Below are positions 8,917-9,358 of a stretch of DNA of 17,726 bases, one piece after another; the stretch's first letter is position 1, and each line of letters opens with the position of its first letter. The position numbers were made by a program, and so were the translations under genes. Source of the DNA: a virus (taxonomy: Duplodnaviria > Heunggongvirae > Uroviricota > Caudoviricetes); IMG/VR virus record IMGVR_UViG_2778261034_000021, one strand, 5' to 3'. The notes below the pieces were generated by a model. The model worked only from the letters and a program-made list of their open reading frames with translations. It did not search any database and was not told where the DNA came from.

Positions 8917-9358
8917 GTAACGCTGCGAGCGTTACAAGGTGAAAACAAATGGCTTCAAACTGGATAAAGCTCGAGGTTATTACGCCGGATAAGCCGGAAA
9001 TATTCAGGCTTGCTGAGATTCTGAATATTGATCCAGATGCCGCATTAGGGAAGGTTATTCGCTTCTGGGCATGGGCGGATCAACAAATGATAGACGGTAA
9101 TGCAGATTGTAACGCTCGCGGCGTTACAAAAAGTGCAATAGATCGCATCTCTTTTATGGCTGGTTTTGCTGATGCGTTAATTCAGGTTGGATGGCTGGTC
9201 GAAAATGACGTTGGGCTTTCTCTACCTAACTTTGAACGCCATAACGGAAAAAGCTCTAAAAAACGGGCGGTTACAAACGAGCGAGTTACAAAAATACGTG
9301 AACTGAAACGAAAAGGTAACGCTGCCGGCGTTACACAAACGGATCAAAAAGCGTTACC
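8917..9358. repeat. Iteron-like cluster: three 19-bp GTAACGC(T)-N3-5-(A)GCGTTAC palindromes plus GTTACA half-sites; candidate replication origin
   Basis: Palindromes at 8917-8935, 9109-9127 and 9316-9334. GTTAC(A) half-sites near 9270, 9285 and 9353. Mostly inside the 5' half of the replication initiator gene, as lambda ori lies within O. Confidence 0.5.

Follow-up and report, generated by a model that had tools for sequence, protein, structure and literature searches.

The 17,726-nucleotide stretch analysed here (the window) is a Rac-like lambdoid prophage, and its region 8880-9450 is 100% identical to E. coli 2011C-4251. It carries a replication initiator gene that is directly followed, on its 3' side, by a DnaC-like helicase-loader gene (Table 1). 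The initiator matches PHROG 2509 'replication initiation protein' over its full length (residues 1-262 against profile positions 1-277 of 277, E = 4.2e-87), and hmmscan against Pfam-A (E <= 0.01) assigned it no family, that of lambda O (Phage_rep_O) included. Its N-domain (about residues 10-97) is predicted to be winged-helix-like, with a predicted recognition helix that is not basic. Residues 98-159 form a conserved basic segment and a disordered linker, with pLDDT below 50 in the AlphaFold2 model. The C-terminal domain is putatively DnaT-C-like: residues 126-262 match phrog_6451 'primosomal protein' (E = 3.6e-37), NCBIfam DnaT is matched far under the family cut-off (E = 0.0066), and a sequence profile search of the PDB gave only weak matches to the DnaT C-terminal domain (2ru8, E = 0.16). 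The record of Salmonella phage epsilon15 cites an HHpred match of its own protein to 2ru8. Foldseek returned no significant PDB match for the initiator.

The gene occurs in 690 of 5426 complete E. coli genomes, nearly always annotated as 'hypothetical protein'. Some RefSeq records call it 'phage replication initiator YdaU family protein'. Among cultured phages, relatives occur in those of Salmonella (epsilon15, SPN1S), Xanthomonas, Pseudomonas and Ralstonia, and metagenomic viruses from several phyla have them too; the records inspected among them annotate no origin, and a 3.4-kb stretch of the epsilon15 record likewise holds no origin feature. The gene after the initiator differs among relatives, being a DnaC/IstB-type loader, a lambda P homologue or a DnaB-type helicase. 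The C-domains vary as well, and a 376-residue initiator variant has an inserted segment that matched no family in a Pfam scan. Only the N-domain and its sites are constant across loci. Two plasmids with the N-domain were found, both phage-like and uninformative on autonomous replication.

Table 1. Features of the initiator locus, in window coordinates.
Feature	Position	Strand	Description
Site A	8917..8935		GTAACGCTGCGAGCGTTAC; GTAACGC-TGCGA-GCGTTAC; non-coding
Initiator gene	8949..9737	+	262 aa; phrog_2509; three-part layout of N-domain, linker and C-domain
Degenerate extra left arm GTAATGC	9097..9103		12 bp upstream of site B
Site B	9109..9127		GTAACGCTCGCGGCGTTAC; GTAACGC-TCGCG-GCGTTAC; in N-domain coding region
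Two GTTACA half-sites	9267..9290 (9270-9275, 9285-9290)	+	encode AVT and RVT
Site C	9316..9334		GTAACGCTGCCGGCGTTAC; GTAACGC-TGCCG-GCGTTAC; in disordered-linker coding region
Right-arm half-site GCGTTACC	9351..9358	+	conserved; abuts the polypurine tract
Polypurine tract AGAGGAAGAGGAAGAGGAAGA	9359..9379	+	21 nt, purine-only; encodes EEEEEE
Short A+T-rich patch AGATCTAAATACTGATC	9378..9393		two GATC sites
C-run pair CCCCC-TAAAT-CCCCC	9395..9409	+	in many relatives a G-run comes next, giving an inverted repeat
DnaC-like helicase-loader gene	9744..10490	+	Pfam IstB_IS21 E = 1e-19; NCBIfam PRK12377 E = 1e-153; DnaC E = 3e-91

We found exactly three copies of GTAACGC-N5-GCGTTAC in the window (sites A, B and C), each where a sequence-only reading had placed a 19-bp element. 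Sites A and B extend to 21-bp palindromes TGTAACGC-N5-GCGTTACA. With up to two mismatches allowed there are three matches in 17.7 kb against 0.04 expected, and none of 200 shuffles reaches three; the 7-mer GCGTTAC occurs eight times against 1.5 expected, seven of them within 8917-9357. That reading had also proposed to count the motif genome-wide and named a similar density elsewhere as evidence against an origin. In two related phages with complete genomes, of 38.7 and 40.3 kb, the palindrome is present at the initiator gene only, so this objection does not apply. Its picture of an iteron-like cluster has to be corrected: the full sites are dispersed, about 190-210 bp apart, whereas lambda iteron starts are 20-24 bp apart, and the window has palindromes and lacks the tandem direct repeats of a plasmid-type iteron origin. 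Some relatives do have half-site arrays, spaced at 10-12 bp. Helical phasing of the A-B and B-C distances was considered and dropped, the Rayleigh statistic being equal at every period from 10.0 to 11.0 bp, which reflects the clustering of related sequences.

Site A ends 1 nt before the Shine-Dalgarno-like AAGGTG of the initiator gene, and it is non-coding because an in-frame TGA at 8940 precedes the ATG at 8949. Site B codes for a predicted loop (residues 49-60 in the AlphaFold2 model) with the peptide C-N-A-R-G-V-T, and site C encodes G-N-A-A-G-V-T. A recurring GVT/AVT/RVT peptide motif had been noted in the protein and is indeed there, with GVT from sites B and C and the other two from the GTTACA sequences at 9270 and 9285. 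The latter had been counted as additional half-sites. GTTACA alone is weakly enriched in the window (13 against 7.0 expected), the orientation and position of these two follow a minority pattern among relatives, and the comparison suggests that they mostly reflect conserved residues more than DNA-level selection, R106, A107, T109, R112 and V113 being invariant in the protein. The half-site claim survives for GCGTTACC, which is conserved as DNA: in 55 representative loci, the interval 6-18 bp beyond site C contains about 0.8 GTTAC copies per locus, where the background rate is 0.005 per 10 bp. In phage vB_EcoS-666R9 a perfect GTAACGC stands where the window has GTAATGC (position 9207 of L111).

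To follow the sites beyond the window, we compared 27 relatives from several phyla, picked by protein similarity and with a mean amino-acid identity of 62%. The unbiased conservation figures are those of these 27 loci; the IMG/VR sets were chosen by the motifs themselves. In relatives from Enterobacterales, Planctomycetota, Saccharibacteria and other groups, the arms of the palindromes are kept and the 5-bp spacer is free. Site B is found with at most one mismatch at +148 or +160 in 22 of the 27 protein-selected loci, the short-form relatives having it at +148 (the position of GTAATGC in the window) instead of +160. Of the 27 relatives, 12, all of them Enterobacterales, have a copy of site A between -32 and -44 relative to the ATG, its frame being any of the three; L001 and L002, in which the initiator gene adjoins the gene upstream, lack it. 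Site C is located between +337 and +412. Most relatives have it in frame 1, whereas in L001, L002, L013 and L027 it is in frame 0 and codes for VTxxALQK; the frame split is 46 versus 12 sites. Synonymous positions in the site B arms are near-invariant (AAC in 25/26, AGC in 19/21 and GTT in 23/24), with 88-96% one base at arm synonymous sites, compared with a commonest third base of 0.29-0.56 at other conserved four-fold sites. Thus, the palindromes are selected as DNA and not as peptide, because the arms are kept while the spacer is free, synonymous sites are fixed, site C occurs in two frames and site A is non-coding. The codons that the sites impose are tolerable because they fall in regions coding for a loop and a disordered linker.

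The stretch at about 9360-9380, noted earlier as coding for an acidic linker, proved to be the 21-nt purine run of Table 1, which is the enterobacterial form of a conserved tract: Enterobacterales repeat (AGAGGA)n and the other groups (AGAGA)n. Shortly beyond site C, 40 of 55 representatives contain a 30-bp window that is at least 85% purine, a level reached by 1.8% of background windows. In the charged run, arginine is coded by AGR 78 times and by CGN twice, whereas the rest of these ORFs has 161 AGR and 584 CGN codons (Fisher p = 6e-44, an optimistic value as the representative sequences are kin by descent). The polypurine tract, too, is under nucleotide-level selection. In an independent scan of 108 (AGAGA)n tracts, GCGTTAC ends at the first C of the pattern's starting CC in 58. 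When the tracts are found by their own sequence, other short repeats precede them at a spacing of about 10-12 bp, for example GTGACG nine times or GTAACG fourteen times; such arrays ahead of the tract are classical iteron behaviour. Relatives have an analogous A+T patch, ATATAAATAAA or TATAAAAGAT, after the tract. Of the 55 representatives, 16 have the C-run pair, which occurs in each of the three frames; among background windows, 15 of 2400 contain it. Six GATC sites lie in 9030-9393, compared with a window average of one per 362 bp, a post-hoc observation.

Could the repeats be a by-product of protein-level selection for an N-A-x-x-V-T motif and a charged linker? Site B always lies in the N-A-x-(S/G)-V-T frame, and the protein alignment shows no change at N55, A56 or V128. 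Frame variation of the (AGAGA)n tract, once taken as proof of DNA selection, was dropped, since a 5-nt repeat encodes one and the same peptide repeat whichever frame is read; the frame argument is inapplicable to the tract, to the benefit of the peptide explanation. However, this explanation is already contradicted by the non-coding site A, by site C lying in the other frame in 12 of 58 sites, by the fixed synonymous positions and by the arginine codons of the charged run. Moreover, the flanking amino acids change (C, S or G before N; G or S before V) while the arm bases stay. We give it next to no credence.

The palindrome is exclusive to the N-domain of this initiator. In a reverse scan with the palindrome alone, 100 of 120 IMG/VR stretches encode the N-domain and four more are truncated canonical copies, and 165 of the 187 sites lie at the canonical A, B or C positions. 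This bears on the idea that the palindromes serve another factor, or are junctions that promote module exchange between phages. Site C does lie exactly at the boundary of N- and C-domain shuffling among relatives. On the other hand, no other gene is constant across loci, and a host factor of such specificity shared by Enterobacterales, Planctomycetota and Saccharibacteria is unlikely. As junctions, 19-bp sites with free spacers would be poor substrates for homologous exchange, and site B is inside the N-domain code, off any junction. This possibility is remote.

A role as hairpins, in the mRNA or in single-stranded DNA, has to be weighed too, whether for stability, translation, antisense termination or priming. 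Each site can fold into a stable stem of 8-10 bp (-12.6, -15.9 and -14.0 kcal/mol; z from -2.1 to -3.5). The rare arm changes are symmetric and keep the pairing: two planctomycete loci have CTAACG...CGTTAG at both their sites, and L029 has GTCAC...GTGAC. On the minus strand, site C together with the CTTTTCGTTT that comes after it scores as terminator-like. However, covariation is almost nil, and the stem sequence is conserved across phyla with a free loop, the opposite of a typical structured RNA. The lone half-sites conserved beside site C are unpairable, and ribosomes open hairpins within a translated ORF. Rfam 15 gave no match at the sites and only a chance-level one at 8760-8822 (E = 0.88). 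No site is followed by a T-run on the plus strand, and the search for intrinsic terminators found none on that strand and only site C, with a weak tail, on the minus strand, a total not above that of shuffles. We regard the hairpin explanation as very unlikely.

E. coli K-12 Rac is a prophage of the same type as the window, with a repressor, a cro-like gene, ydaT, an initiator, a dnaC-like gene and ydaW. The C-terminal parts of K-12 YdaU and the window initiator share 63% identity, which becomes almost complete at the extreme C-terminus; in BLASTP, only residues 96-262 of the window initiator align to YdaU. K-12 YdaU has a DUF1376 N-domain, which the window initiator lacks. Correspondingly, K-12 ydaU has no GTAACGC palindrome, and its linker instead has 4-5 direct repeats of about AGATGTTCAA and then an A+T-rich stretch. 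The C-run element follows the linker in both, in K-12 ydaU as C7-TAAAT-C7-G5 despite the different N-domain. Rac is reported to have an active origin, oriJ (PMC3945230), which PMC11014345 attributes to Potrykus et al. 2000.

Salmonella phage epsilon15 and Pseudomonas phage phiPSA1 have a distant N-domain of the same family (about 32-34% identity). Their half-sites are GTCCGC/GCGGAC, with the palindrome TGTCCGC-N7-GCGGACA, where the window has GTAACGC/GCGTTAC. The layout is that of the window: half-sites of both arms, of which the last has CC at its end, precede (AGAGA)n, and an A+T patch and C-runs come after it, with GCGGACC abutting the tract. Relatives with another N-domain thus have other repeats on a common architecture, and there are three natural classes (GTAACGC, GTCCGC and ATGTTCAA). 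The CTAACG...CGTTAG of the two planctomycete loci counts as a further swap of specificity.

In lambda, whose ori is experimentally defined, the annotated iterons span +348 to +432 of O, and the purine-rich tract ACAAAAGAAAAAAGAAAAGA comes directly after them (PMC7466680). The sequence-only reading had likened the placement of the window's sites to this, and rightly so for the position in the gene and the purine-rich tract that comes next: the corresponding positions here are +367 for site C and +410 for the tract. In lambda and, on our reading, in the window, the origin is in the initiator gene, in the code for the linker between an N-domain that binds DNA (presumably so in the window) and a C-domain that recruits the loader. 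In both, the sites are dyad-symmetric and 18-19 bp long, and a helicase-loader gene comes next; a true lambda P homologue even follows the initiator of some relatives. The likeness fails at the A+T-rich tract. The lambda-type A+T-rich unwinding region is missing in the window, where the polypurine tract stands in its stead: what follows the sites is about 80% A+T in lambda and a G-containing (AGAGGA)n repeat here. We found no AT-rich unwinding element in 8860-9440, the least stable 40-bp windows of which deviate from the window mean by only about 1 SD, and the duplex is less stable at many other places in the window; no DnaA boxes were found within 8190-9587. Lambda has four tandem iterons within 85 bp, whereas the window has one full site and one half-site at its putative core and, unlike lambda, two more palindromes about 200 and 400 bp upstream, in the N-domain code and before the gene. 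The recognition sequences differ (GTAACGC in the window, TCCCTC in lambda), the loader of the window is of the DnaC type, unlike that of lambda, and the window's N-domain does not match the lambda O Pfam family.

Plasmid initiators such as F RepE and R6K pi in some cases use palindromic, dimer-bound sites for autorepression. Binding alone is therefore no proof of an origin, and the palindromes might be only autoregulatory operators that throttle transcription or translation of the initiator, with the true origin elsewhere. Consistent with this are the dyad symmetry of the sites, the end of site A 1 nt before the Shine-Dalgarno-like sequence, and the dispersal of the sites without clustering beside an AT-rich element. 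However, no promoter-like site was found near site A, and lambdoid initiator genes are transcribed from a distant upstream promoter. Most relatives miss site A and keep B and C, and a second cluster is absent from the two complete phage genomes. Operators would leave unexplained the conserved half-site and polypurine tract, as well as the iteron arrays by (AGAGA)n in other phages, and the position of the sites parallels that of the experimentally defined ori of lambda (PMC7466680). An operator-only role is thus unlikely in our judgement, and autoregulation could exist alongside origin function.

We favour, with a probability of roughly 0.7, the reading that the palindromes are initiator-binding sites of a lambda-like phage origin inside the initiator gene. 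The candidate phage origin proposed from the bare sequence has gained support from DNA-level selection, from the specificity for the N-domain and from the swap of the repeats in relatives with other N-domains. Counting against it are the dispersal of the sites, the lack of a classical AT-rich element and of DnaA boxes, the non-basic predicted recognition helix, and the outcome of a search for amino-acid positions co-varying with the CTAAC variant, which yielded only one site-encoded position and two uninformative ones. The likely origin core consists of site C, the GCGTTACC half-site and the polypurine tract, the last being a candidate unwinding or helicase-entry region. The recognition sequence of this lambda-like arrangement is undescribed: the literature searched on oriJ, ydaU and the motif, a set that Potrykus 2000 lies outside, does not mention the palindrome and gives no mapped oriJ sequence.

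Binding of the sites by the initiator and cooperation between the sites are inferred, as are duplex opening at the tract and the start of replication at this locus. The N-terminal winged-helix-like region would bind the dyad-symmetric sites A, B and C as dimers, and one further initiator subunit would take the half-site at 9351-9358. The sites, about 200 bp apart, may be joined through looping or wrapping, which would stress the adjacent (AGAGGA)n tract and A+T patch (9359-9393) and lead to opening. The DnaT-like C-terminal domain would then recruit host DnaB via the phage DnaC-like loader. In the G38P and oriL system of Bacillus phage SPP1, the initiator binds sites inside its own gene, and a helicase-loader and helicase module comes after it. 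Its boxes are direct repeats, where the window has palindromes, and G38P shows no sequence similarity to the window initiator by Pfam scan and PDB profile search. The DnaA-box plus DnaA-trio unwinding module, reportedly described by Richardson et al. in 2016, is alike in that a double-strand site abuts a short-period, strand-asymmetric repeat where opening is presumed. It differs in its protein family and in its 3-nt trio, the window repeat having a 5-6 nt period and being purine-only.

A wider reading is tentative. The locus may belong to a large cross-phylum origin class with a variable half-site array and an invariant, purine-only (AGAGA)n tract directly adjoining the last half-site, in which the tract would be an unrecognised opening or helicase-entry element that is not AT-rich. 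The half-sites would be GTAACGC here and GTCCGC, GTGACGC, TGCTAGC and others elsewhere, and the tract would be common to unrelated N-domains and to partner modules of the DnaC, lambda P and DnaB types. It might act by mirror-repeat triplex formation or by single-strand capture, functionally like a DnaA-trio.

The sequence rule of palindrome or half-sites, then CC, then polypurine tract would allow origins to be annotated across this initiator family. The three specificity classes on a common architecture offer a ready system for the evolution of initiator specificity where the target lies in the initiator's own gene. If the tract is the opening site, it would be an unwinding element independent of A+T richness. 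These features are relevant to the engineering of phage-derived replicons and to the interpretation of prophage induction in Shiga-toxin-producing strains.

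Three 19-bp palindromes of the form GTAACGC-N5-GCGTTAC (sites A, B and C) lie in or next to the initiator gene. For the whole window chance would supply 0.04, and none of 200 shuffled sequences gave three matches. No further copy was found in the window with up to two mismatches allowed. In two complete related phage genomes the palindrome is confined to the initiator gene, so the motif is not present at similar density elsewhere. The palindromes described by the sequence-only reading are thus borne out. One relative, a 42,963-bp IMG/VR contig encoding the N-terminal domain of this initiator family (L118), has a second cluster at 500-600, consisting of GTAACGCGCGGTGCGTTAC and three GCGTTAC/GTTAC half-sites, about 8 kb away from the initiator gene, which may represent another origin or a target for regulation. 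Another locus (L204) has a lone additional palindrome 4.9 kb downstream of the initiator gene.

Features of the window and of two comparison loci
Feature	Position	Strand	Remarks
Integrase	1-1236	minus
RecT	1985-2851	minus
RecE-like exonuclease	2787-5456	minus
Repressor	7694-8113	minus
Cro/DicC-like gene	8210-8452
YdaT/CII-like gene	8449-8871
Site A	8917		non-coding; ends 1 nt before Shine-Dalgarno-like AAGGTG
Initiator	8949-9737	plus	262 aa
Site B	9109		codons 54-60
Site C	9316		codons 123-129
Conserved half-site	9351-9358		GCGTTACC
Polypurine tract	9359-9379		immediately after half-site
A+T patch	9378-9393		two GATC sites
C-run pair	9395-9409		CCCCC-N3-5-CCCCC type, often then G-run in relatives
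DnaC-like loader	9744-10490	plus
DUF1627/YdaW gene	10462-11274
GTCCGC/GCGGAC half-site clusters, epsilon15	L236 ~1830-1960		in initiator gene
GTCCGC/GCGGAC half-site clusters, phiPSA1	L237 ~1560-1960		in initiator gene

The window represents a Rac-like lambdoid prophage; the region shares 93-95% identity with Escherichia phages vB_EcoS-666R9, 673R7 and 613R10 and with 'phage Rac' MN652886. Over 8880-9450 the sequence matches E. coli 2011C-4251 at 100% identity, and this segment is present in 690 of 5426 complete E. coli genomes. The initiator matched phrog_2509 'replication initiation protein' (E = 4e-87) and no Pfam family. This one family is named inconsistently: RefSeq labels it 'hypothetical protein' nearly always across the 690 genomes and occasionally 'phage replication initiator YdaU family protein', and in phage records it appears under the names 'replication protein O', 'primosomal protein I' and 'DnaT-like ssDNA-binding domain-containing protein'. 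The last 29 nt of the DnaC-like gene (10462-10490) also belong to the DUF1627/YdaW-like ORF, which reads them in another frame. An Ash-family domain and a Rha regulatory domain are found together in a 282-aa minus-strand ORF (5975-6823). The annotation table of phage 666R9 has no gene like it in the corresponding place, indicating that this prophage arm is mosaic.

We compared 27 loci gathered on protein similarity alone (amino acid identity down to 31-45%) from Enterobacterales, Planctomycetota, one Saccharibacteria genome, Ignavibacteriae, Gallionella and Paraglaciecola. Counting from the gene start, site B is found with at most one mismatch at +148 or +160 in 22 loci and site C at +337 to +412 in 20, with a 5-bp spacer that is free to vary. 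Third bases inside the arms are near-fixed (AAC 25/26, AGC 19/21, GTT 23/24, GGT 21/24), whereas at conserved four-fold-degenerate residues elsewhere in the N-terminal domain the commonest third base reaches 29-56% at most. The arm bases stay constant even where the residues adjoining the arms vary (C, S or G; G or S). Site C lies in an alternative frame, encoding VTxxALQK, in L001, L002, L013 and L027, and in 12 of 58 C-sites among 60 representative loci. Site A, present in 12 of the 27 loci, every one from Enterobacterales, is non-coding and occurs in any of the three frames. A recurring peptide is therefore excluded as the explanation, by the fixed third bases, the changing neighbours, the two frames of site C and the non-coding site A. 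Selection on the palindrome operates on DNA, not on the peptide. The palindromes would fold into stable RNA hairpins, but action as RNA is opposed by a conserved stem sequence with a free loop, by the conservation of half-sites without a pairing partner and by the absence of any Rfam match.

Alignment of the region after site C across relatives revealed a conserved series of half-site, polypurine tract, A+T patch and C-run pair, which is the likely origin core. Across 55 loci, right-arm GTTAC averages about 0.8 copies per locus 6-18 bp past the palindrome; the background is 0.005 per 10 bp. At least 85% purine in some 30-bp window is seen in 40 of 55 representatives versus 1.8% of background windows, the tract unit being AGAGGA within Enterobacterales and AGAGA outside. 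An acidic linker had been noted here; it is real, a poly-Glu stretch encoded by the AGAGGA-type tract. Since a pentanucleotide repeat gives the same peptide repeat in every frame, frame variation is uninformative on the tract, and codon choice was examined in a charged run delimited on the protein. Arginine codons there are AGR 78 and CGN 2, compared with 161 and 584 in the rest of the same ORFs (Fisher p = 6e-44), indicating that purine purity is selected at the nucleotide level. The C-run pair, which is seen in all three frames, occurs in 16 of 55 representatives versus 15 of 2400 background windows.

On the minus strand (9334-9306), site C and the CTTTTCGTTT after it are scored as resembling an intrinsic terminator, and many relatives have a plus-strand A-rich run upstream of site C; the element could halt antisense transcription entering the origin. 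Six GATC (Dam) sites lie in 364 bp (9030-9393), half of them between 9342 and 9393; the window as a whole averages one per 362 bp. This post-hoc observation, with some of the sites conserved in enterobacterial relatives, hints at Dam/SeqA control. Many E. coli genomes encode a longer initiator of 374-380 aa (376-aa variants of E. coli and Salmonella, P0013-P0058). This form has an in-frame insertion of ~114 aa (...RIDIVVTDRNGVRCGIELDRNSPRQKS...) directly after the poly-Glu tract, corresponding to window ~9385-9425 and thus inside the candidate core. The segment looks nuclease-like by eye, matched no Pfam family and could be a mobile or homing insertion targeting the origin.

A reverse scan of IMG/VR with the bare palindrome returned 120 stretches, 100 of which encode the N-terminal domain, and 165 of 187 sites fall in the place of A, B or C; four of the remaining 20 are canonical copies ended by the contig boundary. 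Only 6 of 60 representatives have a C-terminal domain like the window's and only 8 a detectably similar loader; the gene after the initiator encodes a DnaC/IstB-type loader, a lambda P homologue, a DnaB-type helicase or DUF6475. By its distribution, the palindrome is a signature of this N-terminal domain. A constant N-terminal domain with interchangeable recruitment domains is the design expected of a phage initiator with an origin-binding domain. In the AlphaFold2 model (mean pLDDT 67), residues 10-97 are helical with a β-hairpin (block means about 72-88), residues 98-159 are disordered and the C-terminal domain is helical. Site B encodes loop 49-60 and site C falls in the disordered linker, both of them parts of the protein where codons dictated by the DNA could be accommodated. 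DNA contact may also be made by residues 95-117, a basic and strongly conserved segment.

Where the N-terminal domain differs, so do the sites. K-12 Rac YdaU is 63% identical over residues 96-262, with a nearly identical end, but its N-terminal domain is DUF1376 and the GTAACGC palindrome is absent from its gene. At the equivalent linker position (L233 2472-2563, MG1655) a repeat of roughly AGATGTTCAA is present in 4-5 copies, followed by A+T-rich DNA with GATC and by C7-TAAAT-C7-G5; together these look like the sequence core of oriJ. In epsilon15 and phiPSA1, identity of the N-terminal domain is only about 32-34%, and neither the TPDKPE nor the NAxSVT motif is present. The half-sites of these phages are GTCCGC/GCGGAC and their palindromes TGTCCGC-N7-GCGGACA (at +64 and +364 in phiPSA1); the last half-site, GCGGACC, adjoins the same (AGAGA)n tract. 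The 3.4-kb stretch fetched from the epsilon15 record contains no origin feature. In two planctomycete loci both sites read CTAACG...CGTTAG, and in L029 the site-B position reads GTCAC...GTGAC. Initiator-binding sites would be expected to change together and with the N-terminal domain, as these do, although a search for the residues responsible identified none.

The lambda origin consists of iterons and an AT-rich tract in mid-O (PMC7466680). The four annotated iterons of the lambda record span +348 to +432 of O, with a purine-rich stretch, ACAAAAGAAAAAAGAAAAGA, after them. In the window, site C at +367 and the tract at +410 give the same layout. Unlike lambda, the window's N-terminal domain has no sequence relation to that of O, the core has one full site and one half-site with two more palindromes ~200 and ~400 bp upstream, and the tract is not A+T-rich. 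DNA-level selection, N-domain-specific sites and the lambda-like layout make the candidate origin proposed earlier the best-supported reading. We put at roughly 0.7 the probability that these elements form a lambda-like origin inside the initiator gene, one whose recognition palindrome is undescribed and in which a conserved polypurine tract replaces the AT-rich element. Against this reading, in the candidate region no markedly unstable DNA segment and no DnaA box match were found, and helical phasing of the roughly 200-bp spacings was not demonstrable. Autoregulation may accompany origin function; no promoter was found near site A.

Finally, a scan with the tract sequence gave 108 usable copies, 58 preceded by GCGTTAC. 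The others are preceded by different 6-7-mers that are repeated upstream, often every 10-12 bp. L316 has nine GTGACG, L318 fourteen GTAACG and L274 TGCTAGC palindromes, and GAAACG and CCGGAC form further dense arrays among these IMG/VR contigs (L316, L318, L274, L264 and L242). In several of these loci no N-domain homologue was detectable. As the tract is kept while the preceding repeats differ, the tract is the constant part and the repeats the variable, initiator-specific part. This points to a far broader class of origins with the (AGAGA)n tract in common; the tract is possibly a general non-AT-rich opening element of many phage origins.
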